A stretch of 64,000 nt of DNA from Lophium mytilinum (GCA_010093605.1 MU004191.1:41397-105396); one strand, 5' to 3'. Shown: positions 3,994 through 51,189, counted from the first letter of the stretch. Notes: generated from the letters alone by a model not told the origin. Made by a program: numbers and translations.

Positions 3994-4249
3994 ACTATAT
4001 AATAGAAGTTATAATATATAATTCTACTATAATACTACTAGTATAGCTTATAGAGCTTTAATACTATATATAAATATTTATAGAGCCTTAAGTAGCCTCT
4101 AGAGGCCCTTTTTAGATTATATTTCTAAAGTACTATAAATTTAATTATATTATTTTAGATTTAATATATACTATTATTATAGCTATATACTACCTTCTCT
4201 ATATATATATAATTAATCTACTAAATAGTAGTATTATTAGTATAGTTTC

Positions 4250-7200
4250 CTAGTAAGTTCTTATCTAACTTATTACTAGGCTTAGATACCTTTAGCGCTT
4301 CTTCTTTAGTAGTAGAGTCTATAGATTTAGAGGTAGTTAGTATAGTAATATTAGGGGCAGCATTATATAGATCTTTATCTAACTTACTATAGTTAGCTAT
4401 AGCCTTAGTTAAGTACTTCTTTCTTTTTCTAGTTTTATTAGTAGCTAGAATAATATATAGAATATTAGTAGAGTATTATTCTATAATATTATATATTAGC
4501 TAGGTAAGCCTTTTTATAGAGACTTTTTATTTATTTAAAAGTATACTAGTAAGCTATAAGGCTCTATATATTTCTTTAGGTAGATTTCTTTTCTTTAATA
4601 TAATTTATATTTAATACTTAGTTCTAGAATTATTTAGATTATCTAGAATATTACTAGGCCTATAAGTAAGGCTATTAGGCTTAGTTAACTACTTATCTAG
4701 TTGCTAGTTTAGAATAAAGTTAAATTAGAAAAGATACTTAGCCTAATAGGCTTATTAGCGGTTTAACTATTTAGAAAATATAAAGTATTCTAGGTTTTTA
4801 TAATCTATCTATACTAGTATAGGGTTAATTATACTAGTAAGCTTAGGGCGCTATTTCTTAAAGGCGTAGATAATAGTAAGTAACTTCTTATTATATATCT
4901 TATAGTTATATTTAGTAGAAGTTATTTTCTTAAAAAGAAAGATAATAGGGTAGAGAATTCTATTTAGGCCTTATTAAGAGAGGATAGTAGTAATAATATA
5001 GTTAAATATATCTATTTCTAATATATAGTCTAGATCTAGATTAAAGTAGGCTAAGACTAGCGCTAAAAGAAAAGAGGCTTTAAGCTTCTTAAAGGCTTAC
5101 GCTACTAGACTATTAGTAAGTAAGAGAAAATTACCTTATTCTATTATTTTCTTAGTAAGCTTAGTTAGTAGTATAGTAATCTATAAATAACTAGTAATAA
5201 ATTACTAATAGAAATTATAAAAGCTAAGAAATAATTAAATATTCTTAATATTATAGAGTAGCTACTAGTTCTAGATAGTACTAACTTTAGTTAGGTCTAT
5301 CTCTATACTATTAGGCGTAATAATAAGTCTAAGATACTTTACGCGTTTAACTAAGAAATAATACTTATTAATATTAAGAAAGAGTTCTATATTATATAGT
5401 ACTATAAGAATATTTATAGTTCTTTTTATAGTTCTCTTTATTATTACTATAGATAAGAATATTATCTATATATACTATATAGTAGATATCTAGGTATAGA
5501 TATAGTATAGAATTAATAAATAATTAAAATATACTAGAAGCATTATATAGGCTAAAGAGTATAATAATAAATTTAAAGATACTATATTAGGTATAGAAGG
5601 CTATTTTATACTAGTTACTATTCTTAATATAGATATTATTAAATATAGTAATAATATTAAAGATAAAGTATATCTTAGCTTTATAAAGCTGCGTAATTAT
5701 ATTATNNNNNNNNNNAATAATTAAAATATACTAGAAGCATTATATAGGCTAAAGAGTATAATAATAAATTTAAAGATACTATATTAGGTATAGAAGGCTA
5801 TTTTATACTAATTGCTATTCTTAACGTAGATATTATTAAATATAGTAATAATATTAAAGATAGAGTATATCTTAGCTTTATAAAGCTGCGTAATTATATT
5901 ATATAAGAGAGAAGGTGCATTTCTATCCTTAATTATAATTTTATTTAGTAAGTAGTAATTAATATAGATATAGAGTCCTCCGCCTAGCTTATAGATAATA
6001 ATAACGGGCGCTATAAATAGTAATATACTAGGGTAAATAAAGCTCTTTCTAAGTATCTTATTAATATAGGCTTTAATAGTATACAGCTTATTATAAGAGA
6101 GGCTATACTAGTATAGAATAGAGGGTTTTATATTTAGATTCTTAAAATTAATAGTATAGTCTACGCTAGGCCTATATAGAGGTAGTTTATTAGCTACTTA
6201 TAAATTAAAAGTGTTTAAGATTTAATAAAAGAATAGAGAAATCTTTTATTAAAGCTAGTCTATATATATAGTAATTTTATTATTTTTTCTTTAAACTAAT
6301 AATAGTTCTTAGTAGTAATACCTACTAGGTTTATAATCTATTATCTATAGGTATATTAGTTATCTATATCTAGAGATTTATCTAGCTACTTAAAATTCTA
6401 TAAAGTAATAGTTATTACTATATTCTTATTATATTTAGCTATAGTAGAATAGGTATATATAGAGATAAATTAAATATTATAAGCTAGTAGCTTATCTAGT
6501 AGAACTAGTTCGGGTAGAAAAGGCTTACTATTATAATCTAGCTAAAGAAAGTCTTCTATATTATTAGGGCCTTTAATAGTTAGGCTAAGGTTAAAATTAA
6601 AGTTAGAGTTAGAGTTATATTAAGAGCTATAGAAATCGCCTAGGTTTTAGTATAGTTTAATTTTAATATATTTTAAATAGATAAGGCTTTTAGTAATAAC
6701 TAGTCTACTATAATAGAGGTAGTTAGATATATAGTAGTTAGATTAGAAGATAGTTAGATCTTTCTAAAACTAGTAGTAGAGTTATAAAGCTAGAGCTAGA
6801 GTATATCTAAGATTATATTATATTATCTAGTATTAGTAATATAGTAGGTTATAGTATTATAGTAGTTACTAATATAAAAGGTAATATCTACTATATAGTC
6901 TAGTATAATAGAGGGCTTACTATTAGTAAGCTTAAGAATAATAGGTTATAAGAAGAGTTAGATAGATATTTTATATAGGTATGCGGTTTTTAAATAAAGA
7001 AATTAAGAGCCTAATTCTATATTAAAGAGAATTTTAGTAGTAAATAGATTAGATTAGAGAATTCTATCTAAAAAGCTAAATTATTTACTATTAACTAGCT
7101 AGAGTATAAAAGTAGATATATATATAATAACTAGCTTAATTTCTTATTTTAAAATAGTAATTCTATCTATAACTACTCTTAATTTTCTATTATTAAAGAC

Positions 7201-9825
7201 TATTAGGGGTTCTTAGTAGTAACTATTACTAAGAACTAAGTATTTTCTATTATCTTATTATAAGTAGAGCTAGTATAGATAGCGCTAATATTAATACTAG
7301 TAAGATTAATTTTATTAGTAAGGCTACTAACTTTATAGATAGGTACTAGCTATTAGCTAATATATAGAGTATTACTATTAGCTATATATCTATACTTAAG
7401 ATAGTTCTAGTAGTAATTAAGCTACTTAAGGCGCGTAATAGTGCAGTAATTATAACTAAAGAGGCTTAGAGAGTTATTTATAGTAGTAATATTACTTAGT
7501 ATAGTATTAGTAAGTAGTAGATAGTAAAGTATAGTAGAGCTAGTACTAGTAGCTTTATAAGTATTATATATAGACTTAAAGATCTTCTTCTCTTTATAGG
7601 TATTCTTATTTAGCTTAATAATATTAAGCTATAATTCTAGAGTCTATAGAAAAGTAATAAAAGTTATTATATTACTATTCTATCTATTAGTAGCCTTATA
7701 TTTAAGGCTATTAGCAAGATTATATTATATATAGTAGATCTTCTTAGAGTCTTTAAGGTAAAGAAAGGCTACGCTAGTATTAAAGTATTCTACCTAGGTT
7801 ATAATGCGCTTATTTTTTTCTTATATAAACTTACTATTATATAAATTAGTATATATATTAGCCGCCTTATTAAAAAGTCTATAGACCTTATCTAGGTTAT
7901 TAATTAATTCTTCTATAGAGAGGTATAGCTCTTTACTATTAAATTTAGCCTAATAGAAAATTATATTAAAGGCTTTTCTTTTAAGCCTATTATAGATATA
8001 TACTATATAATAATATATAGTAGTATATAGTAGTATATAAATATCTATCTTACTAAGTACCTATATATACTACTACTAGTAGAATAGCTTATTCTTATTA
8101 CTACTACTAAACTTATCTAGATTAAAGTAGTAGTATATTACTATATATGCGCTAGGGTTCTAAATAGATATAAATAGAGTAGTAGACTTACTCTTAATTA
8201 GATTAAACTATAGAGGCTAGCTAATAGAATATTAATAAAGTAGAACTATAGATATAGAAGAATAGAAACTATTATTATTAGAATTATAGTTAAAGTCTAG
8301 GGGCTATAGGCGTATAACCCCTTATTAATAAAGCTATTATTTAAGCTTCTTAATATAGATAGTAAGCTATTTATATATTCTCTTAAGAGTCTAGTACTTA
8401 CTATACTAGTAGTTATAGTATAGGCGCATCTAGTTAAGCTTAAGGTTAGCCTAATAACTACTAGTAGTATACTATAGTTATTTAGTATAATAGGCCTCTA
8501 ACTCTTATTCTACTATAGTAGTATTATTAGTTATATTCTACTTATACTTTTAATACTTATTCTAGAGTTTATTATAATACTTATCTTTATTCTTAGCTTT
8601 TTTAAAGCTAACTTTATATTCTATATAGAGCTTCTAGAAGAATTTCTACTATATAAAGTTATTCTTATTTACTATAGTAGTAAACTTAGTCTTATTTATA
8701 ACTATAATATTAATAGTTATAGTACTATTAGTATAATAGTTAAGAAGCTAGACTAGTAGCTAAATATAGTACTAGAGGTTACTTTCTTATAGCTCTTCTA
8801 GAATATCTATATACTTAGGTTTAGTATTTAGAACCTATTTAGTTTTATAGTATATAACTAGAATAAATACTTATTAGTCTACTATAGAGATATAGTAATA
8901 AGTAGAGTATAGCTTATTTCTAGCCTATTTATTTATATTATCTTTAGTTATAAACTAAATAGCGCGCTTATCTAGAGTATTTATACTAGATGTAATAAAG
9001 CTGCCTTTATTATTAGAGTTATAATCTAGGTTAAGTTTATTAGTAATAGTCTAGTTCTAGTTTAAAAGTCTAGTAGTATTAACTAGATTATCTACTAAGT
9101 ATTTAGGGCGCTAGGTATTAGCGTACTAGATATTAGCGCGCTAGATATTAGTATACTAAGTATTATTTAAGGTCTATAAGAAGGCTTAAGTCTATTCTTA
9201 GGTATTTAGAATTAGTTCTCTAGTTCTATAGTAAAAGCTAGAAATAATAGCTAGAGTAGAAGAATTTTTAGCTGCGCCCTAAAAGTATATAAGGCGCGCG
9301 GCGCAGTAGGCCTTTTTATTACTAGTAGTTAATAGAGTTATAGAAGTATAGGTAATAGGTAGTTTTTTTAAAGTTAAATTAGTACTATTTATAGCGCTTA
9401 GAGTCTTTAAATTATTTTAAAGCCTAGCTATTAAATTAGCTACTAGCTTATTTAAAGAAAGTAGTACTAGATTATAGTCTACTAGGTTAGATTTAGATGC
9501 CGCGCGTAGCTATATAGCTAGGCCGGCGGGTATTTAATTAGGTTTAGTAAAAATATCTAAATCTTATAATAGAGTTCTAGAAAAAATTAATAAGATTCTA
9601 AGTATAGAAGAGTAAGCTTAGATTATATAGAGGGCTAATATAATATAAATAATAAGGTATATTAACTATTATATAAATCTAAGCTAAAAAGAAGAGAGAG
9701 AGCTAGAAGCTCTTAAAAGGTTATAGTTTAAGGCCGGCGCATAGGCTATAGTCTAGCGCCTTAGGCTAGCATTTTACTTAGGTTATATAAGAGGCGGCAT
9801 GTAACCTTAGTATATAATTATTATA
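4250..9825 (-). mobile_element. RIP-degraded Ty3/gypsy LTR retrotransposon (gag, protease, RT, RNase H; integrase not seen)
   Basis: Minus strand: ~7040-6990 KILFNIELGS (de-RIP LFDTGSGS protease); ~5610-5450 YKIAFYT*YSIFKFIIILFSLYNASSIF*...YIDNILIYS (KTAF..YG.FEF.VMPFGL.NAP..F, YxDD); ~5100-4650 AFKKLK...EIDIFNY...NYKIYNKKLLTIIYAFKK*R...IDYKNLEYF...LNR**AY*AKYL (ETDASD, NYEIYDKELLAIV, TDHKNL, LNRRQARW). A possible degenerate 5' LTR lies at ~9625-9825. Confidence 0.92.
5706..5715. other. Scaffold gap (10 N) flanked by a 187-bp overlap
   Basis: 5519-5705 is repeated at 5716-5902 with a few transition differences. Confidence 0.95.
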
Positions 9826-9840
9826 ATTCTAGGTTTATAC

Positions 9841-11750
9841 TATAATAATATAAAAATAAAGATATAGAAAAATAAGCTCTAAAAAAAGATTAAAATACTT
9901 TAAAAGAAACTTATATATAAAACTAAACTTCTTATCTAGGCTAAATATTTAAAGAGTAGTAAAGAAGCTAGATTTAAAACTACTTAAAACTAATACCTAA
10001 TTATAGGCGCTAGCTATATTTTATAAAGTATTTATATCTATATTTTCTATAAATAAACTACTTAAAACTTTATTTATAGAAAAACTATATAAGCTATAAA
10101 TAAAATATTATTAGTACTTATAGCTTTAGCTAGTATTAATACTATTATCTAGAGTATATTTATATAGAAAACTAGAGCTTATTAAGCTCTTTTTTAAGAT
10201 ATAGAGAAGTACTTAAAAAAAATAAGTAATAGCGCTACTATTACTATAGTATTCTAGTAATTAATTTATAAAAGTACTAACTTATATATAAATCTTAATA
10301 AAAAGGCTATTAAAGTAATAGAGGCTAATTTATAGAATATTATAATAAGGGGTATAAATATTAATTAAGATATATAGGCCTTTTTTAAATATAATATTCT
10401 TCTACTATCTCTAATAAGTAGAGTAGTAATAACTATTTCTATCTTTCTTATAAATAATAATAAGCTATAAGAAACTAACTTTTATATAGTATAACCTATT
10501 AAAATAATATTACTAGTAAGCTAACTCTATATATCTAAAATAATACTAAAAGAACTAGAAATTATTATATTAGTAGCCTTAAAAAAATCTAGAGAAATAA
10601 CTACTAGTTTATAAGCTTATACTACTAAATAGAAGAAAATACTAATAAAATCTTTTTAGTAAAGTAGAAAATTACTATATATTCTATATAAGTTACTAAT
10701 AAATACTTTAAAATTATAATATAGTATAATAAATACTAATAGAATACTATCTAGAAAGCTATTAATAATAGTATACTTATTAGTAAGCTTTTAATAAAGA
10801 GTATAAAATATATAGTATAATAAGCTAAAGTCTATAAGGCTTTTATATAGCTATCTAGTATTATTACTACTAACTTTAGTAGAATCTATACTAGTAAAGC
10901 TAAAAAGTATAATAAGTAGTAGTATACTAAAAGTAATAACTATAAAGTAAAAGCTATTAAAGAATAATTTTATAACTAGAACTAGTATAACTTAAATATA
11001 ACTAAAGCTAGAATAATAAAATTTTAATAGCTTCTATATTAAATATAATTATCTAAAAAACTTATTATTTAAAGTAAACTATAATAATACTATAGTTAAT
11101 AAGTAAGTAGCCTTAGATAATAATAATCTAGTAAATTTAGATATAACCTTTCTAGTACTCTATAATTTAGTAAAGTTAGCTATACTAGATATATTAAATA
11201 GTAAAAATAAAAAGATTACTAAAAAGAAAATTAATATAATAATAGTTAATATTAATAGCTATATATATAGTAGTAAAAATAAAAGTAAAAATAAATAGCT
11301 TTTCTATAATAATTTTACTAGTAATAACTCTATCTATAATAACTCTATCTATAATAACTCTATCTATAATAACTCTATCTATAATAACTCTACTAGTAAT
11401 AACTTCTCTAACTATTTTACTAGTAATAATTTCTCTAACTATTCTACTAGTAATAAGAATAATAATATTATATAAAATAAAGTTACTAGTATAGCTATAG
11501 TATACTTTAATCTTACTAAAGATAAAATAGTTAAAGAAAAAAAGTAAACTAAATAGCTATAAGTTCTTATTAGTAATAAGTAGCTAAAGAAAAAATATCT
11601 ATCTATATTAAAATACTTTACTAGAAAGATTTAGCTAATAAAAAAGATATAAGCTATAGAAAATATATAAACTATAAATATATCTATAAAGGTATAGATA
11701 ATACTATTAAAGAGATAAGGTTATAGTAGTAGTAATAGTAGAGGTAGCTA
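9841..11750 (+). pseudogene. RIP-degraded long relic ORF (roughly 600 codons), family unknown
   Basis: Frame starting 9841 reads as protein-like text broken by TAA/TAG stops and contains an in-frame 15-bp repeat at 11323; no TE catalytic motif recognised. Confidence 0.4.
11323..11397 (+). repeat. 15-bp tandem repeat (aataactctatctat x4 plus a degenerate copy)
   Basis: Perfect copies at 11323, 11338, 11353, 11368; in frame with the 9841 relic ORF (NNSIY repeats). Confidence 0.9.
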
Positions 11751-11823
11751 TAGCCGGGGCTAGATACTAATACTTCTTCTTTATTACACTATCTTAGGAG
11801 AGATAATTCTTAGGCGCGGTAAT

Positions 11824-12257: not shown

Positions 12258-14015
12258 CTAGATAGTTCGATCCTCCATCTCGACCTGCCCATCTAGCTTC
12301 CAACCAACCTGGTCCCATCGCGCCAACAAGGTAGCTGGTACCACCTGCCGGGTCTTACCCAGCTTGACGTTCACTGTCTGGAGACTCGCCAATGGAAAAT
12401 TGTCCGTACACACCTTCTCTTCCTTGACCTGCTCGCTCTCCCCTCCGACGGAGGGCTCGCCGTCCCATTCCGTGTTGATACAACACTCCGCCCTTTCGTC
12501 CCCCAGATTTTCGTTTCCGTGTAGCTCGACTCCTCCCTTAGTTTGTTCTGCTTGCGTATGAGCCCCACCCCCTACCACATGTTTTGCGCCATCGCACACT
12601 TTGGCCGCCATACACTTCTGCAGCAGCATATCGTCGCAGAGCCGGATGAGATCCATGTCCGCGCCATTGACGACTAAAGTATCCAGCGAGAGCGGGAGCC
12701 TCTCCAGCAGTCCGGTCCCTGCCAATGCCACTTCTCTTCCAGCGGTATGATCCCAAGTCTTGTCCATTTTATCGATCGGGCGACCTACGAGCGCGGTTTG
12801 CTCAATGTCCAAGACTCGCAGTCGCTTGAAAGCTTGCAGATTGGTCATGGGATAGGCGCGCGGAGACTTGCTGGGGCAGGACGAACAGACGATCGTACAC
12901 TTCTCGAGACTTTCGTGAGAGGCGGTGAGGTAGGACAGTAAGACGCAGTAGATCAGGTTGACGCGCGTCGAGCCATCTGGCTCCGACCACTCCGTAGCGT
13001 CCGTGAAGGTGAAAGATGTAAGAGGGCCAGTGCAGCGAAGGAAGTTCGCTAAGCCAACAGTGACTATCGGCCAAGCAGCAGACGAAAGGTCGAGTTGGAT
13101 GGAAAGGTACTTGATGCCAAGTACTCGTGTAGGAGCGCTAGCTGCGAGTAGCACTAGATTTTGCGTGCTGAGGATCGAAATTTCTAGACGTGTGAGGTTG
13201 CCAAGTTCTAAGAGGGAGTCTGGGGCGCCAAAGTACAGCCATGGGAGCGGAGGGCAGCCAATGGGTTGCTCGAGACTTAGGTTGCGGAGCTTGGAGAACG
13301 CCGGGATGCGGTGGAGAGGAGCTCTCAGAACGCCGAAAATCATGGTGTAGAGTGCAATGCTCGTCTTCACCGACTGAGTTTTGATTTCAAAAGACTGCAG
13401 CGTAGGAAACAGCATGAGCATTGCTCCAAGCGTGCCACCGCAGCGGCTGCGATACGCCTCGGCAACCGGGCCAGTTCGTCCTCCGATCATGCCCCAATGG
13501 GCGTTCACCATCATGTTCACCATGGTTGCCTTCTGAGCGTGATTGAGGGGGTCTGGGTCATTGGTTGTTGATCGTCCGGTTTGCGCGATATACATTGACA
13601 GGCTTTTGACTTTACTTCGAAGGTCTGGGCGATCGAGAAGAGTTCGCGTTAGCTGCCTAGCTCTGTGGAAGATGCCATTGAGGTGTCTTGTGTCTAACGC
13701 GATCGCGTGGAAGAGTTGCTCCTGTGCGGTGCGGCCCAAGGACCTTCCCAGATTTGCTACCAGTAAAAGTGTATCATGGTCGAGGAAGGACATAACGTTG
13801 AGTAGAAGCTCGTCGGGGAGCTGGCTTAAAGTTCCTTCCTTGGAGGGCTGCCAGGTTACCTTACGACGACGAGGCTTACCACGCGCGGTTCGCGCACGCT
13901 TGTTGCGTTGAGCCGGAGCGCCAGCCATATTCGGAGCGGTTCGCGCACGCTTGTTGCGGCGTGCCGGGGCGCCGGCCATATTCGAAGCGGTTCGTGAGGA
14001 TGTGGATGGCCACAT
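12258..14015 (-). CDS. F-box domain protein with LRR-like C-terminal region
   Basis: Intronless ~585-aa ORF; F-box-like LSQLPDELLLNVMSFLDHDTLLLVANLGRSLGRTAQEQLF; LxxLxL motifs (FSKLRNLSL, LGNLTRLEI, FKRLRVLDI); first ATG 14015, alternative 13979. Confidence 0.85.
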   Translation of the reverse strand: MWPSTSSRTASNMAGAPARRNKRARTAPNMAGAPAQRNKRARTARGKPRRRKVTWQPSKEGTLSQLPDELLLNVMSFLDHDTLLLVANLGRSLGRTAQEQLFHAIALDTRHLNGIFHRARQLTRTLLDRPDLRSKVKSLSMYIAQTGRSTTNDPDPLNHAQKATMVNMMVNAHWGMIGGRTGPVAEAYRSRCGGTLGAMLMLFPTLQSFEIKTQSVKTSIALYTMIFGVLRAPLHRIPAFSKLRNLSLEQPIGCPPLPWLYFGAPDSLLELGNLTRLEISILSTQNLVLLAASAPTRVLGIKYLSIQLDLSSAAWPIVTVGLANFLRCTGPLTSFTFTDATEWSEPDGSTRVNLIYCVLLSYLTASHESLEKCTIVCSSCPSKSPRAYPMTNLQAFKRLRVLDIEQTALVGRPIDKMDKTWDHTAGREVALAGTGLLERLPLSLDTLVVNGADMDLIRLCDDMLLQKCMAAKVCDGAKHVVGGGAHTQAEQTKGGVELHGNENLGDERAECCINTEWDGEPSVGGESEQVKEEKVCTDNFPLASLQTVNVKLGKTRQVVPATLLARWDQVGWKLDGQVEMEDRTI

Positions 14016-14602
14016 CAAGAGCGGGTCGACGAGGTGTATGGGTTGAACAGGAGAGAGTAGTTTGACGCTGTCTGAGGTGCCCTAAAAAGCTATTCGGCTT
14101 GTCAAATCTGGAATTCACGAGCTCTGATGACGTGCTTGAGGTTCTCAGACGGCGGTATACAAGTGCACGGGTGTTGAACACGAATTAGGAGTTTGGAGAG
14201 TGTATAGAGAAATGTTCTCAAAGCTTATTAGGAAGCCGGTAAGGAGGTATATTTGATGGTGTCTAGGGGGCTGAGAGGTACTGGTGGTCGAATTGCCTTC
14301 CTCGCCCTTAGGAGTAGGTGGCTGTGAATAAGTCAACAAACATACCTAGGCACCAAATTAATTGTGCGCTGCCACGTGGGTGACATGGACTTGGGCTGTC
14401 ACGTGATATTTAGATATGATCGGATACGGTAGTAACGGTTACCAAGAGCTTGGAACACTGAGAAAAAAAGTTGAAAGGCTAGGAAACAATTGCAATTGCT
14501 CGAGTCCAATCCCATCGCGACACGTGCGCCGCGCGAACTCCAATCCACGAATGGCCTATCGCGGTTCAACATCACAAACCTAGCTATACCATCCCACGAA
14601 GC

Positions 14603-28188: not shown

Positions 28189-29027
28189 TTATACAGTAGG
28201 ATACCCGCAAAATCCGCATCCGTTGCATGTAGAATATTCACGAGTTTGTACCGGCCAGTCCATGCGACACCCTCCACACTTCCATTCTACCGTCTTAAGG
28301 GCATGATTCGCGACCTTTTTTCCTCTACTCATCCGGACGAAGCAATCTCGAGAGAAAGCTCCAAGTTCTTCCATCACGGTCGGGATAGGGTCGTCGTCTG
28401 ATTGCTCGGCAAAGATATTGTGATTTTCGACAACAAAATCGACAACGATGTCGCGTAGGCCTCGATCAGTGGATATTGTGGTCTCGTAAACTAGACGGAT
28501 GACGTCCGCCAGCCACTCTTCGCCTCCGTGCGCTTCGATGAGAGGCCTTAAGTAGTCCTTTGCCAGATTCTGTAGGCCGGTGACCTCGTATTTTGCTCCG
28601 ATGGCATATGTCTTTCAACATAATGTTAAAGCGCTCTTGTACTTAGAGTTGGACTCAACTGACCTGCACGTAGTGAAGCGCCTTCCGACTAGACGCGACA
28701 CTTTCCGCAAAGATGTCGCATTTGCCAGAATAGGCATACCGAAGCAGCGCGTCGACTGCGTAGGCATTGTCATGGTTGAGGTTAACGACGCATTCTTGGC
28801 CTTCTCTCCAGTAGGCGCTACACGCCTTGCGGAAAAACTCGATTTGGCTGCACAGGACGAGACGGTGGACCTTATAGGTGATGCTGCCGCAGCGGACTTG
28901 GAGATCGCTGTACTCGCCGTTGTTCAAGTAGCTATTAGCGCGATTAGTCTAGTGCATACCGAGAGCTTAGTGATGCGGAATGGACTTACTCGGCAAGCTG
29001 AAGAGTTACACCTTGCGGGGGCGCCAT
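28189..29027 (-). CDS. BTB/POZ protein with C-terminal C4 zinc ribbon (BTB-1, intact); exons 29027-28990, 28931-28664, 28611-28189
   Basis: MAPPQGVTLQLAD|YLNNGEYSDLQVRCGSITYKVHRLVLCSQIEFFRKAC...AVDALLRYAYSG...HYVQ|TYAIGAKY...DRGLRD...CGGC..CNGC. Confidence 0.88.
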
Positions 29028-29362
29028 GATGGGGTCCGCTCGTTGGTGTTGAAGATCAAGGTGGAGCGATTGGCTCGAGCAGGCGAAGTAATGTTTGGGT
29101 GCTGAGTAAGCTTTGCCAAACACAACCTCACATGGCAGCGCCTGGGGTGGCTCAGACATATCTCATAGATATCCAAAATGAATTCCCTGCGGCTTGCATC
29201 GGGTTCCAAAACTTTGTTGGGAAATTCTCGACTATGCCAATTGGGCGTATGTTGATGGTAAGGTGAATAACATGACCTCCTCACCTTATATAAACTGACC
29301 TTGTTTCTTCAAGTCGCATGCAAACTGTCATTCTCTTACTAGCAATCCTCACGCTTCTCGCG

Positions 29363-30204
29363 ATGCCGCCTCCAAAAGATCTATCGGGGTAATGATCAGC
29401 TCACAACGTGGCTTCATGATACGTTTGCTAAAGGTGATAGGTTTTTGAAATCCGGGGAATTCAGCGACCTGTAAATCCGCTGCGGCACTCAAAGCTGGCA
29501 AGCCCACCGTGTCATCATGTGCAGCCAGATACCATTCTTCGAAAAAGCTTGTAAGGAAGGAGTGTACAAGGTAGAATTCCCAGGCAGGATTCCGTAAAAG
29601 CATCGGTGCTAATAGATTCAATGACCAGGAGGGCCACGAGCGATTGGTAGATCTCAGCCATGATGAATACCTCGCAGTCAATGCTATGATCCAATACGCA
29701 TATACTGGAGACTACGAGCCTAGAGATCATGTCAATACTTACAACCGAGCGCTTTTCCACGTCCAGGTCTACGCCATCGCGTCAAAATACAACCTGTCAG
29801 ACTTGCAGGAGGTATCCAGCAAGCGCTTCGAGCCAGTGATCAAAGAAGGTTGTTACGAGCGATGGTTCCCGGATGTCATTCGCGCCGTCTACGACTCCAG
29901 CTTCCCGAGAGACCATCATCTCCGCGACATCGTTGCCAACATCATGATCGAACATCAGCCTGCATTCGCGGCTAAGGGTGAAGAGAACTTCATGGACGAG
30001 TTGTTGGAGGAGCTCGGGGGATTTGCTCGTGACTGCTTTGCTAGGCTAAGCAAGAAGGTCAAAGACGAACAAGAGGGCGCCTCCAAAGACGCAGCCAAAA
30101 TGATCCGTTCTGCCAACTGCCACCTATGCGGTCATCAGATTTTCAGAGGCCCATTTTCGCGGCCTCACTTGTGCCCCGGGTGTGGTGCTACCAGTTACTT
30201 CTGA
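29363..30204 (+). pseudogene. BTB/POZ + C4 zinc ribbon gene (BTB-2) with premature TAA at 29472-29474; exons 29363-29388, 29441-29570, 29629-30204
   Basis: MPPPKDLSG|FLKSGEFSDL*IRCGTQSWQAHRVIMCSQIPFFEKACKEGVYK|EGHERLVDLSHDE...CHLC..CPGC; splice sites match paralogues. Confidence 0.8.
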
Positions 30205-30807
30205 GACGAACTCGAGAGACAAGCAATCAGACGGCACTAGCCCAGAGGTCCGGGAACAAGGCTTTATCATTACTTCGCTCCAATCTGACCAACTTGTCAG
30301 CACTACGTGAAGCAACCCAGCTATTATGTAGCCAATGAATCAAGATTTTGTCCAATTTGCACTGTTTCAAACTTCACACTGTGCCTAGGGTTCCGAAACC
30401 CTAAGGGGTATCCTAAGCGGTGGTATACGGGCGAGCATAGTCTGATGTCACTGTAACCTCGTCTATATCAGACTATGCTCCCTAGATGTCAATTATGTAC
30501 GGTTATTTCTCATTCAGACTTCCCCTGATAACAAGCAATCGCGGGAGGTATAGTCCCACAAGTAGATAGATAAAATCTGTAGCGGGTGCCTCGATACGCT
30601 TCCGAAGATCTCATAGAAGGGAGTTATGGCATTCACTGTAATGATGAAGTTTCGTAGGCCGCTTTAAACATCCTTAGCCACGAGCTGGATTACATAAGCC
30701 TTCGAGGTGAGCTTGACTTCACTGCTTGCGCCCTTACTCCCTCGCTGTACTGAATTCCTCCTTCACACCCTCCACTAGCTGCGATCGAGCCGCCAGCTTT
30801 ACCTAAG

Positions 30808-31700
30808 ATGCCATCGCCGGCGGAACTGGAGGACTATCTGGCCAACGGCGAATACAGCGACCTGAAGATTATCTGCAATGGAGCCACCTACATGGTTCAC
30901 CGACTCATTCTGTGCAGTCAGATTAGATTCTTCGAAAATGCATGCAATATATCTTGGAAGGTGAGAGTATCCATGGCTATGGAGATAATCTTGCTAATGT
31001 AGAAATGAATAGGAGGGCGAGGAAGGTGTTGTTGACCTCAGTCATGATGACCCAGGTGCGGTCAAAGCGATGATCCACTATGCCTACACTGGGAACTGCG
31101 CAGCCTTCGACAACGCCGAGGACAGTCAGCAAGCACAACATTGGATCCAAGTGAGTTCTCACTGGTTTCTTGCATGAGAGCTTGTCTCATTGATACAGGT
31201 CTATGCGATCGGATCGAAATACGACTTCCTAGGCTTGAAGACGAAAGCGAAAGTTTATGTGGAACCGATCCTGGAGAACAACTGGGATAAGGACTGGTTT
31301 GCAGATATGATTCGTTTGGTCTATGGCACCACTATTTCCGATCGTGGCCTCCGCGATATTGTCGTCACAATCGTCCTCGAACATCATTCGACTTTCGCTG
31401 AGCAAAGCGGCGACGCTCCCATGCAAAAGCTGTTGGAGGAGGTTGGAGAGTTTAGTCGCGACTGCTTCAATTCGCTGTAAGAGAGAAGCTCATGACCGGG
31501 AAGGATATCTCAAGTGCGAAACTTGCAGTAAAGAGTGGCAGGCTCAGCCACTCGCTTCACTGGTGTCTGACCCCCTCTGTTCGAGATGTGGAGGCCTCGG
31601 ACTCCAGATATCTGCAAAAGGGCAGAAGAAGGGCGATAGGAAGCCGAAACGCTACATAGGCCCTAAATCGTATAGCCCCACATCCTATAGTCAAGGCTAA
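30808..31700 (+). pseudogene. BTB/POZ gene (BTB-3), frameshifted just before its zinc ribbon; exons 30808-30960, 31013-31150, 31199-31480 (ribbon in shifted frame to 31700)
   Basis: MPSPAELEDYLANGEYSDLKIICNGATYMVHRLILCSQ...WK|EGEEGVVDLSHDD...HWIQ|VYAIGSKY...FSRDCFNSL*; the next frame gives KREAHDREGYLKCETC...CSRC. Confidence 0.78.
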
Positions 31701-32206
31701 TCGACAGATCATGTTGCATACACCCGACGGGGCCTGAGTAATGAGATGACTCCAGCAACTGAGAACATCAGATCTCAATTGCTAAGCTATGAAACAGAAT
31801 GCCTCTAAATCAGCCATGATTTTCTTGAGTGATGAGCCTGGTGATGTGTTTCTTTTCTAAATTATTTGCGCCTTTGGCTCCCCGCAGCTTCGACCATATC
31901 TCGCCATAATGTTTCGACTACGGTTCTTGAGTGTCCGTCTAATTGTGACATCAAGGAAGATTTGAGATGATGCCGCTAGAACGATAGAAGATGTGCGTAC
32001 ATGTCCAGCCACGTGTTGTCCTCTTTCTAGAAGCTTTATGTTAGACCATACCTTGTGCGAGACAGGTGAGAGATTTACCGTTGAGACTCGGATTACATAA
32101 GCTGCTACCACAAACACACTCATCTGCGCCCCATTTGGCGTTCCTCCGCCACCTCACCCCTTCACAAGATCCTAAAGCTGCAAAGAGGCTGCTTTTCAAG
32201 CCCGTC

Positions 32207-33049
32207 ATGGCACCTCGTGGCATCATCCTCCCAGTCGAGGAGTAAGTACTAGCTCCCATATTCTCTCTGGTACAACCTTCACAAATATTGATCCACCGCA
32301 ACAGCTACCTCGACAACGGCGAATTCAGCGCTCTCGTCATTCGTTGCGGCGCCGTCACGTACAAAGTTCACCGAATTGTCTTGTGCTGCCAAATCGACTT
32401 CTTCCAAAAAGCTTGCGGCGGTCCTTTCAAGGTTAGTGATTCACAACAATCTGGGGTGGATTCAGTTTTGAACACAAAACAGGAAGCCGAAGAAGGCATG
32501 ATCGACCTCAGCCACGATGACAGTTACGCAGTTGGCGCGATGATTCGCTACGCCTACGGAGGACAATACGGTCCTGCTGAGAATCCCGATCCCGACGAGC
32601 AAGCTCTTCACCATGTCCATGTCTACGCGATTGCCTCCAAGTACAACATACCGGGGTTACAGGCGATGGCCAAAGATTGCCTCAAAACACTAGCGGATGC
32701 GCATTGGGACAAGGACTGGTTTGCGGACATCATTCGATCTGTCTACGAAACCACTATCTCCACAGACCGCGGCCTCCGTGACGTTGTACTTCATGTATTC
32801 ATGGATCATGACATGGCCCTTGCTGAGGAGGGGACCGAAAGTCCGGCTCAGAAAGTGTTCTACGAAATCAGGCAGTTCGCTCGCGACTGCTTCAACAAGA
32901 TGAGCGAGGACAAGAAAGCCGCAAACGATGAATTCAAGATCTTCCGCGAAAATACGATACAATGCATATGCGGATATAAGGGTCTAAAGAACGGCGAGAA
33001 TGGTTCGGTATATTGTGGTGACTGTAGGAGTAAATGGTACCTCAAGTGA
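32207..33049 (+). CDS. BTB/POZ protein with C-terminal zinc ribbon (BTB-4, intact); exons 32207-32241, 32305-32431, 32483-33049
   Basis: MAPRGIILPVED|YLDNGEFSALVIRCGAVTYKVHRIVLCCQIDFFQKACGGPFK|EAEEGMIDLSHDD...CIC..CGDC. Confidence 0.88.
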
Positions 33050-33903: not shown

Positions 33904-35365
33904 ATGATGAGCAGTGCCTCCACGGACTCGGTACACTTCTGCGACTCCTGTAGCAAGCCATTTGCGAAAGGTGCGTCTCGTTATTCTACCAATGGTGTCC
34001 ACGTCGCTGACTTCGAATAGCATCTTCCTGTAAACGGCATATTTCGTACTGCAGGAGAACGCAAAATCAGAACCGAGTCCGTCGACGATCGTGCCGCGCA
34101 TGTGGCGCTGCGAAAGCCAAATGTAGCTTTGAAGTCCCCTGTTCACGATGCACAAGAAACAGGACGCAATGCATCTACGAGACTCCAATCTCAGGTTCTC
34201 AAAGCTCTAGCTCCATTGTCTCTACACCGGCCAGCAGCATGGTACCATCTTTACCGACGGTTGAGGAACTCGCAGACGGCAGGTCTACGTGGCCAATCTG
34301 GTCATCTACCTATTCATTTGACGAAAATCATCTCTGGGAGGGAGGAGCAGATGATTTCCCTTCGAATCCCATCCCTCCCAACGAAATTATCCGTAATGAT
34401 AGAGCAATTATCGACTATCCCGCAGATACAATACTCAACACTTCTCCTTCTCGATCTCCTACCCACGAAGATCATATTCCGGCAGTCTCCACATGCACGG
34501 ATTTAGCTATATTCCCCATTGTAGCTTCCCTACCACGAATTGGAGCGCCGGATCCCGCTTCCCAAAGGTGCGCGTTATTCATATTGCAGGGCTTGCGTTC
34601 CTTTCCCCACATGATGCTCCGAACCGAGACATTCCCACCATTCATTCACGCAAATTTCCATCAAAATTGGAACTCCCACGGCCCTGCTTTACCAGAAGCC
34701 CTTGGGAATTGCATTGGAGTTGCACAAATGTTTGTCTCGAGGACATCCGAGACGACGCCTTTCATTTGGCGAACCATACGCGAGGAGCAGCATCGCCTAA
34801 TGAAACAAATCGACACATTCACGAAGTTAGAACTGGTAGCTGCCATTCAAGCGTTCACGGTGTACGTGATTATGCGAATTACAGACGAGCAAGCCGAGCA
34901 TGCCGAAGAGGATTTTGCGACTCTCCGATCGTTCCAAGCTCTATGCCACCGTTTTTGCGAGCACTCCGGCGGCGGCCAATGTGTAGGCACGAACAGGTTC
35001 ACCCCAGCTCTACTTGGGCAGAGTGGGTGCTTGCAGAGTCCCTTCGACGGGTTGCGGTTGTTTGGTTCCTCTTCGATCGCATCGTCTGTATCAGAACAGC
35101 GGTTCCATGCGAGGTTACTAAGGACTTCCAATTGCTACCATTGCCTTCCTCCAAGATGCTGTGGGAGGCGCCAACCGAAGAAATGTGGCGTTCGGAACGG
35201 ATTCATGAGAAATCGACGACAAACAGTGGATTCCTTTCTTTCGGCGATCTAATAGATGCTCAAAGAAGAACGCAACACACCGAAAGTATACGAAAGCTTG
35301 ATGCATGGACCTCCAGAGTTGACGGGCTGAGTACACTACTCTCGGTCGCCACCGTCATGGTTTAA
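33904..35365 (+). pseudogene. C2HC finger + Zn(II)2Cys6 transcription factor with an apparent 1-nt frameshift at ~34975; intron 33971-34020
   Basis: CDSCSKPFAK|ASSCKRHISYC, then CRACGAAKAKCSFEVPCSRCTRNRTQCIY; the family-typical C-terminus (WAEWVLAESLRR, PLPSSKMLWEA) lies in the -1 frame. Confidence 0.8.
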
Positions 35366-45841: not shown

Positions 45842-47326
45842 TCACTCAACCATGAACAAGATACGCCAGAGTGGTTCGTGTCCAGTTCGAAGCGAATCTC
45901 GGAAGATACGATACTCTCTCCGAAAGGGAGAAGCTATGTGAGTTTGCGTCATCTTCTGCAAGCTTTGGCTGATTCCGACTCCATGTAGTTCCAGAACACG
46001 GGAATGCGCACCACGCATGCTATGGTAGGCGGGCCCATAATCCTCCGTGAGACTCTCGAGAAACACCGAAGAAAGGCGAGGTAGCTGTGCCATCGACGCG
46101 AAGACCTCTCGCCACGTCAACAGGCTATTAAGATGAATATCGCGCATGCTTATGCTCTCGAGAGTGGCACTGCATCTGCTGAAAAATTGGAGCAGCTGGA
46201 CTGCTCTGACAAAGCTATCGCTAATACCCAAACGGACGAGAGCCGGAAATCTGTGCAGGCAGTCGTAGGATTCGCGTTGCAGCCAACCGCCAAGGAATCG
46301 AGATTTGCTATTGGAGTACTGGAGCTCTTCGATATGGTTGTGCATGCCGGCAGATTCGAGTAGGCCGAGAACCCGAGTGGCCGACTCATAAGTGTCTTCG
46401 TGGCGTATGGACAAGCTCCGAAGATGGCTCTGGACTATGTTTCCCCACGCGACATTCGTTGGGTTCCAAGACCGGCTGTTCCGTGCGTCCCAAGGGTCAT
46501 GGACGTGGTAGATCAAGTTGGGCAGGACCATGGAAACATCGACATTGATAGATGAGATATTACTGATTTTCAGGGCCCTAGCGATGACCTCGTGCGCTGG
46601 ATACAGAGATTTGGATGTTAAGATCCCGGATAGTATTCCCCCCGTGAACATCTCACGAGGAAGGTATCTGCTATGGTAGTCACCTCCACCGTAGCCACCT
46701 CCCAGTTCAGCGATCGTGGAAGGCGCGTACAACTTTCGATGTTCCCAATGCTTCTGAAGCGACGTCGTCTTGCTGGCGTTCGGAGAGATGTCCTCGGGCT
46801 TCTCCAACGGAAGAGAGCTTATTTGAACAGCTTCCAGGTTTTTAAAGTTTCGAAACGCCGCCCCCAACATATCGACATCTTTTCCATTGGCCCGCATCTC
46901 GTTCTGGTGGATGAGTAGCAGGTAAAACAGCTGGAAATCCTGGTCAATAACACCCCGTTTCACTGGGTTACAGTCCGGGTCGAGAAGCTGCTGGACATAT
47001 CCCCGGTCTATGGCCCTACATGCGAAAGAGACGTATTTGATGCGGTTCGATAGTTTGGAGTCCATGGAAAGGTTGACGAGGCACGCAAGGTTTTGATAAG
47101 TCATGACTAGCTGGATCGCCTGGGGATAGTTTGCCTGAAAGACGGAATTTGACTGAATGCAGAGCTCCTTGCATGTCTGCCGGAGGGATCCGACACTATT
47201 TAGGTCGAGGCATCCGCATATAAACCGCACTAGCTCGGTAGGTAAGCTCAAGAGACGTGACTCGGTGGATGTGGTTGCCTCCGGAGGCTCCGGCGGAGGC
47301 TCGAGGGCGTGAGTGAGGATAGACAT
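45842..47326 (-). CDS. F-box protein (tandem paralogue A)
   Basis: LLSLPTELVRFICGCLDLNSVGSLRQTCKEL; LRR-like C-terminus; intronless 494 aa. Confidence 0.88.
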   Translation of the reverse strand: MSILTHALEPPPEPPEATTSTESRLLSLPTELVRFICGCLDLNSVGSLRQTCKELCIQSNSVFQANYPQAIQLVMTYQNLACLVNLSMDSKLSNRIKYVSFACRAIDRGYVQQLLDPDCNPVKRGVIDQDFQLFYLLLIHQNEMRANGKDVDMLGAAFRNFKNLEAVQISSLPLEKPEDISPNASKTTSLQKHWEHRKLYAPSTIAELGGGYGGGDYHSRYLPREMFTGGILSGILTSKSLYPAHEVIARALKISNISSINVDVSMVLPNLIYHVHDPWDARNSRSWNPTNVAWGNIVQSHLRSLSIRHEDTYESATRVLGLLESAGMHNHIEELQYSNSKSRFLGGWLQRESYDCLHRFPALVRLGISDSFVRAVQLLQFFSRCSATLESISMRDIHLNSLLTWREVFASMAQLPRLSSVFLESLTEDYGPAYHSMRGAHSRVLELHGVGISQSLQKMTQTHIASPFRREYRIFRDSLRTGHEPLWRILFMVE

Positions 47327-48757
47327 GATGATGTCGGTCGTAGCGTGTTACTTTGATGGACGTTGAAGAGGTTTGCGGTCGGCGATGTGAGGTACTCGAT
47401 CTTTAAATGGGCGAGGGTAAAGTGCGTGGTTGTCAAGACCTCGCTACCAGACTCTTAGAGACACGTAGCCACAACGACCACGAGAAGCTCCTGAGCAGAG
47501 CTAGAGTCCAGTTTTCCACCGTATGATCTGCGCAAGTATGGAAAATAGCTAATACTTAAGTTCTCCGATGAAATAGCGGAGTGTGCTCGAGGTGACGAAG
47601 GTAAAGAAGCTTGAGGTCGCACAGTAGTTGCAATCTGTCATAAACTGTCAACCGTGGATGTTTCTAAAGCGAACCATGGGACACGAGTCCGAATGAGACT
47701 TTTCATCGCTAACCTTGAGGTCAAGGTTTTTCTCGGATCTCTGAGCTAGTCGTGAAGCAACCTCGAAAGCTGGCAGACGTGCGGATTAAGTTTATAGTGA
47801 GATGGAGTCAAGGAGCTATTCCAGCAGCGCAGTCAAACTATGTCCTAGTATCAAAAAGTTAAATGTTCAAATGAAGTAAAGAAGGCCCTCCGGCATCATA
47901 AAGTAACAAAAATCGTTTTCATATAGCAGCCTACGCTTGCCTAGCGTTCACAAAGCGTTTTATGTGAACCATCACGAGAGGAGGCGTATCATAATTCTGG
48001 TCACGATCATGGAGATACTAAGAAAGCAGTAGAATTGAAGATTCAGTTCTCCAAGAAGCGTCAGAAGCTAGAAGTCCCTGAGCTAGCAAGGTCTCGGTCA
48101 TTCGTGACCCTCCTGATATGCATTCCCAACCCTTGACCTCTTTACTCGCTGTCGCATTGTTCTTGCAATCCAGAAATTAATGATAGAGACTGAAAAGAAA
48201 GTTTGGGAAGGATGTTAGGAAAGTAGAAGTAGAGGTAAGGAAATGTAAATGTGTACTTGAAACTGGGGAGTGAATAAAAATCATGGGCATGTAAGTGGGA
48301 TTCCAAATCTGAGACCCGGACTCGAGATTTGATGGTGCAACACTATTGCAGAAAACCTGTGTCCACTCGTTTGGCACTGTTGAGAGGGCTCTCATCTTGT
48401 TTGAGAGCTCTAGACGCGATAAAAAGAGGCATAGGGTAGGATGCAGGCTGACTTTAAGCAGGCTAGCCGTCTAGCAGCTGAGCTGCTCTTAGTAGTGTTG
48501 CCTCATAGATGAGAATGGCACTTCAGCAGCGGACCATGACTTGGTCCTGTAGTGTCCCAGGTGTAGTGGTTGAAAGTAGCTGAATGATGGAGGAGATCCC
48601 TATGCGGGCTTTGTCAGACCTCGAGGGTTATGTCGTTCGTGAAGCCCCAGTGTCGTTAGTCTTCCGCGGATTTTGTAGTCTGATTTCCTTGGCCGAAGGC
48701 ACCGAGGTAAATTTGATCAGTGACCGGCTGCCTGCCTTCGTGACATCAATTTCAGTC

Positions 48758-50245
48758 TCAAAAATGAACCACCGCCATGTTAAAGGGAGGCTGCCAAAAC
48801 AGGCCCTGGCCTAGTCGTAGCTTGGAAACAGCAAGCTTCAGCCCTGGCGATATCTCTTTGCCTCGAAGCCTTAGATGCTGTTGGCCAGTATTCGGTAGCG
48901 GGTTTACTAGCGCGGGAGTCTCCTGACGCAGGTTTCTCAGATGCACCAAGGAAAGGCGAAGCATTTGTTCCAGGCACTCAAGCACCAGAGTCCAAGAGTC
49001 TCCCGGAAAGTAGAGATTGACGTTTTCCAGAGTGATGTCCTCGAGCATCGGCCCAACATCCGACAATAAGCCATGAAGCTCTCCAACGCGGCTGAATCCA
49101 GTATCGTTGATAGTCAAGTGCTTTAGAGCACGCCAATGGAACGCAGACAAATCCAGAATTCTATCCCGATGATGATACAAATGTGAGAACCTGAACTCTT
49201 CAAGTCGTTCTGACACCGAAGTCACCCTGAGCAGGTTGCTCGTCCATTCGGTCATATCACACAGCTTGCCGTACTCCGCGTGAATCACTAGACTGCGGAG
49301 GTGCCGCTCCGCCAATCTTCTCCACGACGTGGTGGCGAGATCGAACGGCTCATGATTCCAGCTGTCAAGGGAGCTGCAAATAGGCTCGAAATCGGCGTCC
49401 CACGAAGAGAACGGGGGCGAGAGTGATACCGTAACGTCAACTTGAATGGTCTGGCGGTCGCTCTTCTCAAGGGCTTCTACGACTACATCGTTCAAGGGAT
49501 GCAGGGATAATAGCACGAACTGCTCTATTTCGAGTTTCATCCTGTCTACAACTGCTTCAGCTTTGAGACTCCTCTTGAAGGGGGTGATGAGATGTGCTCT
49601 AGGACTTTCATATTGGTCAAAGTCTTCCGAGGCCCATTGTCGCTGCAGAGACATGGTCTTCCCAACGGCCGGAGACGGATCGCCGACCGTCTCTTCTGTG
49701 AATAGGTAACACAGCTGAACGATTTTGAGATTTGTGAAATTCGTGAAGGCCTTGACGAACTGGCAGACGTCAGAACCATCTTTTTCCATACCCCTTTGTT
49801 CATCTAGTAGATAGAGAAAGGCCTTGACTTCGTCGCTGGGTTCAAGGTGGTCGTCGAAATTGGAGTCATCAGAATCGAGTTCAGTGGAAAGACCAGAGGA
49901 CTGAACTTGGCAGTAGCAGTGACTTTCGTTCACGGGCTGGGAAACGATTGAGAGATATTGAACATAGCTGCCGAGATCTTGAGAGGATACGGCCACAAGA
50001 TTCTTTAAAGCCCGGCGTGAGACGATGGTACGAAGAGCCCGGAAGTAGGTAGTTCCGAAGTGATAAAGTGACTTGTCCCGTAGCTCTTTGCAGGTCAGTC
50101 GAACGGCTTTCAAGTTGTCAAGATCCAGCCATTCGCACACGCCTTGGATCATTTCGGTGGCCAGATCCAGGATATATGCTGTGTGAGTCAGCATTGCTGT
50201 GGTTGAAGGAGGCTCTCCGGGAGGCTGTTGAACGCCGGACGACAT
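48758..50245 (-). CDS. F-box protein (tandem paralogue B)
   Basis: ILDLATEMIQGVCEWLDLDNLKAVRLTCKELRD; collinear with paralogue A (KTMSLQRQW vs KTTSLQKHW, RHLRSLVI vs SHLRSLSI); intronless 495 aa. Confidence 0.88.
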   Translation of the reverse strand: MSSGVQQPPGEPPSTTAMLTHTAYILDLATEMIQGVCEWLDLDNLKAVRLTCKELRDKSLYHFGTTYFRALRTIVSRRALKNLVAVSSQDLGSYVQYLSIVSQPVNESHCYCQVQSSGLSTELDSDDSNFDDHLEPSDEVKAFLYLLDEQRGMEKDGSDVCQFVKAFTNFTNLKIVQLCYLFTEETVGDPSPAVGKTMSLQRQWASEDFDQYESPRAHLITPFKRSLKAEAVVDRMKLEIEQFVLLSLHPLNDVVVEALEKSDRQTIQVDVTVSLSPPFSSWDADFEPICSSLDSWNHEPFDLATTSWRRLAERHLRSLVIHAEYGKLCDMTEWTSNLLRVTSVSERLEEFRFSHLYHHRDRILDLSAFHWRALKHLTINDTGFSRVGELHGLLSDVGPMLEDITLENVNLYFPGDSWTLVLECLEQMLRLSLVHLRNLRQETPALVNPLPNTGQQHLRLRGKEISPGLKLAVSKLRLGQGLFWQPPFNMAVVHF

Positions 50246-51189
50246 CGTGGTAGCGCCGGATTAGAATAATTGTTGTTGGCGAGTTCGAAGATGTAGAAGA
50301 GATGTAGTGATATAGTGGAATTGTCGTTCAAGGCTGAAGGAGTTGGCACCTCACTAATCAGAGAGGCTACCAGAATGTATGAAGCAGAGATTGAAGGACA
50401 AAGACCTCAATAAAAGACCTTTCCTGGCAAGGAGCTTGCCGATATTGTCGAGTAGACGGTGATGAAGAATTGCTATTGGTGATGAGACGCTTAGAAGAAG
50501 TAGAGAGGAAGTCGTCGGACTAGATTCGTCCAAAAGGTAGATATAGTGAGAAGGTCCACGCGCTAGCGTTTTGTATACTCCAGTGACTTTATATGAAGTG
50601 AGGAAGCAAGCGATGATATGATGGAGGTCGATGGCGTAGGATTAACGTGAGTACGCAAAGGTGATATACCACCTAAATTTCCCCACAAGCATAAAAGGAT
50701 GACTCCGTAACTCAGATGGCCCAAAGTTACCCATGTGTGGGAAACTTAAAGACGCTGAGTTGGGGATCGACTCGTAGAGAGGTCACCTTTTTGGTATTTT
50801 CTTTTTAGAGGACTCTCGTCCATTCACTATCCACCCCACGAGAAGCCGAGGGTGAGAATATGAGACGGAAAGACGTTGAGAAAACGTGGAGTGGAAGGAA
50901 CGTGAATGTACGCTACCGTGAATGCTCTTACATGTCCAGGTGTTACCTCCTTCCCATTATTCACCCCTTCTCCACGACTATCTCAAGAGCCGTAGAAAGA
51001 TCCCGAGGACTTTGCGTAAAACATACATGAATATACACTACCCGTGGTATCTACCCAGTCGCTGCGCTAAATGCTCCTCGGCGCGTACGCACCGTGTAAG
51101 AACTGCTTCATGCCGCTACAATACCTGGAACTGCCAATGCTCAAAAGCTCTAAGGGAAATGCCTATCTTCGAGACTCTGCATTATCCCC

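Follow-up and report, generated by a model that had tools for sequence, protein, structure and literature searches.

A cluster of BTB genes in Lophium mytilinum from a family with SPOP-like bodies and predicted C-terminal zinc ribbons

Two MATH-BTB Cul3 substrate adaptors, human SPOP and plant BPM, are the described proteins whose core most resembles that of the genes reported here. MATH-BTB expansions in nematodes and grasses consist of multi-copy, partly tandem BTB adaptor genes. Cul3-BTB ligases have barely been studied in filamentous ascomycetes. In a Neurospora study, eight BTB proteins were screened and a strong Cul3 interaction was reported only for BTB1, which was co-immunoprecipitated (PMC2996332). 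For mushroom-forming fungi (Agaricomycetes), a BTB/POZ expansion is mentioned in another paper (PMC10282164). The present work concerns a DNA stretch of 64,000 nucleotides from Lophium mytilinum (Dothideomycetes, Mytilinidiales, Mytilinidiaceae; GCA_010093605.1 MU004191.1:41397-105396), called the window below. An initial annotation, made from the sequence alone, had placed a tandem array of four BTB/POZ genes with C-terminal zinc ribbons at 28189..33049 of this window.

Exactly four BTB paralogues, G1 to G4, are found in this interval by six-frame reading, Pfam and tblastn, in agreement with that annotation. No further BTB copy or relic was returned in the 64-kb window by tblastn with four family proteins. 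The cluster is best explained as part of a large Pezizomycotina family of ~240-aa proteins, within which it belongs to an old branch conserved in Mytilinidiaceae. These proteins begin with a short peptide that leads into a SPOP-like BTB domain and a 3-box/BACK-like helical bundle; a long helix and a linker of poor conservation follow, and a four-cysteine (C4) ribbon closes the C-terminus. Our confidence in this SPOP-like BTB-BACK plus ribbon architecture, and in its evolutionary history, is very high.

The BTB/BACK-like body and the C-terminal ribbon

The Pfam BTB model (PF00651) matches G1 with 44.9 bits against a cut-off of 20.5 (E 1.5e-11), the G4 read-through with 31.5 bits and exon 1 of G3 with 24.1 bits. 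A 40-aa piece of G2 scores 15.6 bits, which is under the cut-off. The same model is matched by 36 of the 62 aligned family members at E <= 0.01. The core motifs quoted in the initial annotation are real, as the invariant columns of alignment A1 include Y-A-I, K-Y, W..D.IR.VY, LRD and F.RDCF.

The AlphaFold2 (AF2) model of G1, for which 62 relatives were aligned, has a mean predicted local distance difference test score (pLDDT) of 92.5 and a predicted template-modelling score (pTM) of 0.81. Its top Foldseek matches are SPOP structures (4j8z_A, E 7e-7, TM by target 0.74), and the family profile matches SPOP with an E of 4e-15 over profile positions 5-193. Both a BTB fold and, after it, a 3-box plus BACK helical bundle are recognized, the BTB/3-box/BACK region of SPOP being the best fold and profile match. 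Only 13 residues precede the BTB domain, and no Pfam match to a MATH domain was found in the copies or in the 62 family members. The body is therefore SPOP-like in fold, yet outside the MATH-BTB family, because Pfam names only the BTB domain and gives neither a MATH nor a BACK_BPM_SPOP match.

In the profile alignment, the family residues f-k-e align with M-E-E of SPOP, a site which we take, from the structural literature on SPOP and KLHL proteins, to be the hydrophobic-x-Glu motif that contacts Cul3. Copy by copy, this loop reads W-R-E, Y-K-E, W-K-E and F-K-E, so that all four paralogues keep the hydrophobic-x-Glu form; the Glu is E56 in G1. The Glu column holds E in 44 of the 47 rows with a residue there, and the hydrophobic column holds Phe or Trp in at least 22 of 43 rows. 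The modelled fold and the aligned loop support the placement of the copies in the Cul3-adaptor structural class of BTB proteins. The earlier proposal of Cul3 adaptors holds at this level, with a C4 ribbon appended.

The only module appended in the family proteins is a predicted ribbon of ~25-35 residues. In the G1 model, a long helix (186-205) is followed by a hairpin (208-213 / 220-225) that bears the first knuckle, the second one lying in coil; the block pLDDT of the ribbon region ranges from 67 to 92. The knuckles are separated by 13, 14, 17 and 14 residues in G1 to G4. The initial annotation had these spacings right for G1, G3 and G4 and gave 15 for G2. The first knuckle of G4 is a CxC, and G1 to G3 carry CxxC pairs, those of G3 being out of frame. 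G1 has five Cys in its tail, which makes its second knuckle ambiguous.

The pattern C-x(1-4)-C, 6-30 residues, C-x(1-4)-C was counted in the 150 best family representatives. It is present in the last 70 residues of 70 of them, compared with 0/150 in the first 70 residues and 6/150 anywhere before the last 70; whole-protein shuffles gave a mean of 0.95 and a maximum of 4. Among the 98 representatives that start with Met and are at least 200 aa long, 47 have it. Cys makes up a fraction of 0.046 of the tail and 0.020 of the remaining sequence. Judged by these counts, the C4 tail is a family trait beyond chance. The 57 strict CxxC...CxxC tails show a loose consensus, Y-K-C-P-x-C, 10-25 residues, Y-C-P-x-C-G, and the tail residues are thus not unrelated to each other as first described. 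The Cys columns of alignment A2 are at least 90% conserved, but its rows were picked for having the pattern. Zn_ribbon_8 (PF09723) is matched by three of the 62 members (best E 1.9e-7), and the other 59, including the copies of the window, miss an E of 0.01.

A profile of the C-terminal halves of the four copies, searched against 1.84 billion representatives, retrieved 3690 proteins at E <= 0.001; 647 of them reached E <= 1e-10. Generic BTB proteins, including a spider protein, appear among the weaker matches. Named ribbon carriers belong to Lophium, Mytilinidion, Venturia, Tothia, Phaeosphaeriaceae, Elasticomyces, Cryoendolithus, Meristemomyces, four Aspergillus species, Penicilliopsis and Fusarium oxysporum, all of them annotated as hypothetical or "BTB domain-containing". 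On the basis of these matches, the BTB-BACK-like-ribbon architecture is widespread in Pezizomycotina and not peculiar to this locus. Besides the array, the proteins retrieved comprised just two more paralogues from Lophium, P0019 and P0020.

Two Tothia fuscella members, P0117 and P0026, have adjacent accession numbers, and family proteins of 413-885 aa with two to four profile matches occur in several fungi (cf. P0022 and P0023 of Venturia and P0024 of Cryoendolithus). This suggests that tandem or fused family copies may also exist in other fungi.

The family had been proposed to be undescribed, and full-text searches, whose coverage excludes subscription journals, found no literature description of a fungal BTB-plus-ribbon family. 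The adaptor core is already known; the appended ribbon is unnamed yet widespread, and no Pfam model names it.

Gene models, damage and age of the copies

Exon models of G1 to G4 were built from the sequence. G1 lies on the minus strand, head-to-head with G2, and G2, G3 and G4 are on the plus strand; the genes form a cluster rather than a uniform head-to-tail array. The 335-bp region between G1 and G2 may serve as a promoter. Splicing was compared with contigs of X1, a public run of unrecorded library type whose depths were not used for ranking genes. The features are as follows.

28189..29027, minus strand: G1, intact BTB/BACK-like/ribbon gene, 242 aa; exons 29027-28990, 28931-28664 and 28611-28189 (stop included)
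28989-28932 and 28663-28612, minus strand: introns of G1, both bridged by an 877-nt X1 contig, with GT..AG ends
28207..28278, minus strand: zinc-ribbon Cys cluster of G1 (C214, C217, C231, C234, C237)
29028..29362, no strand: divergent intergenic region between the start codons of G1 and G2, 335 bp, from the gene models
29363..30204, plus strand: G2, BTB/BACK-like/ribbon gene with an in-frame TAA; exons 29363-29388, 29441-29570 and 29629-30204
30118..30183, plus strand: ribbon of G2, CxxC-14-CxxC
30808..31480, plus strand: G3, BTB/BACK-like gene, 190 codons; exons 30808-30960, 31013-31150 and 31199-31480
31515..31589, plus strand: ribbon remnant of G3, CxxC-17-CxxC, in the +1 frame relative to the BTB frame and inside the open reading frame (ORF) 31311-31700
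32207..33049, plus strand: G4, intact gene, 242 aa; exons 32207-32241, 32305-32431 and 32483-33049
32242-32304 and 32432-32482, plus strand: introns of G4, the second bridged by an 807-nt X1 contig, with GT..AG ends
32963..33025, plus strand: ribbon of G4, CxC-14-CxxC

G1 and G4 have full ORFs and X1 contigs bridge their introns at GT..AG ends; they are therefore intact and present in spliced form. The translation of G1 is 100% identical to P0167, the 242-aa Lophium mytilinum "hypothetical protein BU16DRAFT_527918". The 807-nt contig of G4 begins exactly at the start of exon 2 (32305), and the intron read-through of G4 shares 92% identity with P0001, an annotated partial model from this species.

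The two middle copies are damaged. G2 has a TAA at 29472-29474, which is codon 20, where G1 has Gln; it is otherwise open over its 243 codons, and no X1 contig covers it. In G3, the BTB frame is closed by a TAA at 31478-31480, three codons past the conserved RDCF, and the Cys knuckles follow in the +1 frame. An X1 contig spans 31409-31593 colinearly, with no joint, no indel and a depth of 2.7. Because of this stop, this frame and this colinear contig, G3 as written cannot encode a BTB domain plus a ribbon. The four-Cys strings with which each gene was said to end are all present in the DNA, but for G2 and G3 this description does not carry over to the reading frames. In this strain, G2, by its nonsense codon, and G3, whose ribbon is severed by the frameshift, would be decaying or truncated copies.

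A candidate 52-nt GT..AG intron in G3 (31475-31526) would restore the frame. It was rejected, as it deletes the first Cys knuckle, has no good branch-site match by eye and is retained in the sole contig over the region.

Core identity among the four copies is 41.5-56%. Mytilinidion resinicola, of the same family, has orthologues of three of them: P0018 is 81.8% identical to G1, P0017 78.5% to G2 and P0002 71% to G4. P0017 and P0018 have adjacent accession numbers and lie on one contig, and the contigs of all three proteins are equally long. A maximum-likelihood tree of 21 rows supports the pairing with Mytilinidion for G1 (100/99), G2 (100/100) and G4 (99/96). It also joins G1, G3 and G4 (97/98), unites all Lophium and Mytilinidion copies in one clade (98/98) and pairs the dispersed Lophium paralogue P0020 with a Mytilinidion protein (99/98). 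The proteins returned did not include an orthologue of G3. Since G1, G2 and G4 pair one-to-one with Mytilinidion proteins, the array predates the Lophium/Mytilinidion split, with no duplication inferred since then.

The introns tell a similar story. Each copy keeps a different two of three positions: G1 lacks the intron after the hydrophobic-x-Glu loop, G2 and G4 the one before Y-A-I, and G3 the first one. This retention of different pairs points to an ancestral three-intron gene and to old duplications. A birth-and-death mode of evolution had been proposed for the array. The G2 nonsense codon and the G3 frameshift fit some gene death in this strain, two of the four copies being damaged, but the births are old.

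The P0017 model begins with a Met that lies shortly after the site matching the stop of Lophium G2 (29472-29474), which reflects either shared old damage or a truncated product made from that Met. In the partial model P0002, the first ~40 residues resemble exon 1 of G3 (30808-30960) and the remainder G4, with which P0002 groups in the tree. Either a chimeric model over two neighbouring genes or past gene conversion may account for this.

The tail had also been called hypervariable. Averaged over all pairs of the 62 aligned rows, identity is 34% in the BTB domain, 29% in the helical extension and 7% in the linker; in the ribbon it amounts to 24.5%, or to 11% when the four Cys are left out. As these rows had been picked for having the pattern, the Cys conservation partly reflects that choice. 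Across the family, the tail is therefore far less constrained than the core. Substitution rates between close relatives were taken from two 90%-identity clusters, Aspergillus (two pairs) and Elasticomyces (five pairs), with 0-5 ribbon differences per pair. Six of the seven pairs have a ribbon rate of 0-0.045 versus 0.030-0.060 for the rest, and the seventh 0.208 versus 0.126. At short range, these sequences indicate a ribbon no faster than the rest, one pair of seven excepted. The initial description thus stands for poor conservation outside the Cys (11% against 29-34% for the core) and not for a faster rate.

Two candidates for the rate comparison were dropped: P0034, for an Aspergillus orthologue test, with a single relative at 42% identity in a word-indexed search, and the pair of P0019 and Mytilinidion P0038 as ribbon-bearing orthologues, at only 40% identity and with a 26-residue gap.

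Sequence setting and neighbouring genes

Bases 1 to ~11,800 of the window are AT-rich (GC 0.18-0.28), with indices of repeat-induced point mutation (RIP) of 1.75 (TpA/ApT) and 0.07 ((CpA+TpG)/(ApC+GpT)). No ORF of at least 130 aa is present in this block (1-11800), which presumably consists of RIP-degraded repeats. The array, by comparison, has indices of 0.71 (TpA/ApT) and 1.26 ((CpA+TpG)/(ApC+GpT)), which are ordinary and like the rest of the window outside the AT-rich block. The genes had been described as near a transposon-rich block; the RIP-like block ends ~16.4 kb from the array, and the array itself bears no RIP signature.

Neighbouring genes encode a haem-dependent N-demethylase-like protein, a Zn2Cys6 transcription factor, a protein kinase, an acetolactate-decarboxylase-like protein, a sirtuin and an APP1-like phosphatase. 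Just downstream of G4, at 34011-35365 (plus strand), Zn2Cys6 DNA-binding and fungal-specific transcription-factor domains lie in two overlapping frames; this is probably a single gene with an intron, or a frameshift. Two single-ORF paralogues of ~500 aa are found at 45842-47347 and 48758-50260 (both minus strand; 28% identity, E 1e-32). The former has an N-terminal F-box match below threshold (18.9 bits against a cut-off of 20.5), and a 607-aa ORF at 12258-14081 (minus strand) has a likewise sub-threshold F-box match. Taken with the four BTB genes, these F-box-like ORFs may make the window rich in substrate receptors of cullin ligases.

Competing readings and comparison with known systems

In the reading favoured here, G1 and G4 would dimerise via their BTB domains and, in the fashion of SPOP, use the hydrophobic-x-Glu loop together with the 3-box to bind the Cul3 N-terminal domain. 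The ribbon, as the sole appended module, would hold the partner, which would make G1 and G4 minimal Cul3 substrate adaptors beside two damaged copies. This is probably the correct account as a whole. Taken separately, a Cul3 adaptor function is also the likelier option, and a partner-selecting role of the ribbon is put forward only tentatively, as less likely than not.

Several observations weigh against this account. One Cul3 binder among eight Neurospora BTB proteins means that the BTB fold alone is no proof of adaptor function. No Pfam BACK_BPM_SPOP match is listed, and the BACK model matched only one of the 62 members at E <= 0.01. The ribbon modelled alone reaches only a pLDDT of 71 and a pTM of 0.39, has no match in the PDB at E <= 0.001 and is small for a substrate receptor. 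The annotated models of P0017, P0018 and P0002 all end before the ribbon. As to G3, its colinear contig is shallow (2.7) and the X1 library type is only guessed, so that it may represent pre-mRNA or DNA.

Independence of Cul3 is the alternative that fits some of these points. The proteins could be BTB-BACK scaffolds acting as oligomeric regulators, whose ribbon binds ubiquitin, RNA or a small GTPase in a RanBP2/NZF-like way, or nucleic acid as in BTB-zinc-finger regulators. RanBP2-type fingers have a Trp two residues before the first Cys, and so does G1. The weak top rows obtained with the isolated ribbon are mostly fingers of the RanBP2/NZF type (ZRANB2, RanBP2, Nup153, TRABID, HOIL-1L, HOIP), but every one of these matches lies at E >= 1.0, and no zf-RanBP Pfam match was found at E <= 1 for the window copies or at E <= 0.01 for the 62 members. 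The knuckles are 13-17 residues apart, a longer spacing than the 10 of RanBP2/NZF fingers. The report of one strong Cul3 binder among the eight Neurospora proteins suits such scaffolds; against them, the body best matches solved structures of Cul3 adaptors and retains the Glu of the Cul3 contact. Scaffolds of this kind are judged a minor, though serious, possibility.

The initial annotation proposed a different role, in which Cul3 adaptors form a diversifying repertoire and use a hypervariable ribbon to survey foreign or non-self proteins, under birth-and-death evolution next to transposon-rich DNA. The ribbon outside its Cys is indeed near-random, and the loop between the knuckles ranges from 10 to 25 residues, but low conservation outside the ligands is ordinary for small ribbons and linkers, and the ribbon rate does not exceed that of the rest in six of the seven close-relative pairs. 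Damage to two of the four copies, adjacent or multi-unit members in Tothia and Venturia, and an Aspergillus sclerotioniger member without any relative above 42% identity (word-indexed search) would suit this proposal. Against it, G1, G2 and G4 are kept as one-to-one orthologues in Mytilinidion at 71-82% identity, with no duplication inferred since the split. One-to-one orthologues conserved across distant taxa, with a ribbon under strong purifying selection, had been named in the annotation as one observation that would refute its proposal; the pairings of three copies lean toward this, though within one fungal family only. The distance of 16 kb from the RIP block and the lack of RIP marks in the array also speak against the proposal. 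Nothing in the window ties the genes to defence or non-self recognition, since no NLR, HET or similar incompatibility or defence domain was found in 28 neighbouring ORFs (E <= 0.001; eight rescanned at E <= 0.5). Such a surveillance role is considered quite unlikely; the findings are not evidence for an immune-like system and stay within ordinary BTB biology. Still less probable is that the whole cluster is a decaying relic without present function. The premature stop of G2, the frameshift of G3 and the partial or truncated Mytilinidion models would agree with it, but G1 and G4 have complete 242-codon ORFs, correct splice sites and spliced contigs, and keep 71-82% identity with their orthologues across genera.

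A broader form of the minimal-adaptor reading can be imagined, although it is speculative and unlikely to hold in full. The family would be an unnamed, Pezizomycotina-wide class of minimal SPOP-like Cul3 adaptors in which the ribbon, with its freely varying loop of 10-25 residues, is the sole recognition module, possibly a NZF/RanBP2-like reader of ubiquitin or short degrons. Tandem clusters would then be a slowly diversifying receptor repertoire, with copies switched off (G2) or stripped of their ribbon (G3).

The gain lies mainly in annotation: gene models were corrected, two copies were recognised as damaged, and the family can now be told by its signature. If the adaptor reading is true, the widespread, compact BTB-BACK-ribbon design would offer a simple model for substrate choice by a very small module, and it would give a name to a large share of the "BTB domain-containing hypothetical proteins" of Aspergillus, Fusarium, Venturia and other moulds.

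Among known systems, SPOP and plant BPM are look-alikes of the core. In comparison, the copies described here have no MATH domain, with ~13 residues before the BTB domain; what they append is a C4 ribbon at the C-terminus. Identity at the sequence level is ~15%, and there is no BACK_BPM_SPOP Pfam match. BCL6, PLZF and the ZBTB proteins, which are BTB-zinc-finger transcription factors, have arrays of C2H2 fingers and no BACK-like bundle. In the Lophium copies, a single C4 ribbon follows a BACK-like bundle, and the fold match to these factors is weaker than that to Cul3 adaptors. Neurospora crassa BTB1 (NCU04838), compared by description only, is likewise a BTB protein of Pezizomycotina, and it is reported to co-immunoprecipitate with Cul3 (PMC2996332).

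As to the ribbon, Zn_ribbon_8 resembles the family consensus Y-x-C-P-x-C ... C-P-x-C-G, while the loop of the family varies in length from 10 to 25 residues. RanBP2/NZF fingers dominate the weak ribbon rows (E >= 1), without a Pfam match and with a shorter spacing than that of the family, and are a lead only. The lineage-specific BTB expansions are likewise multi-copy and partly tandem. Here, by contrast, the copies date from old duplications and have orthologues in a second genus, and the part that varies is the ribbon, not MATH.

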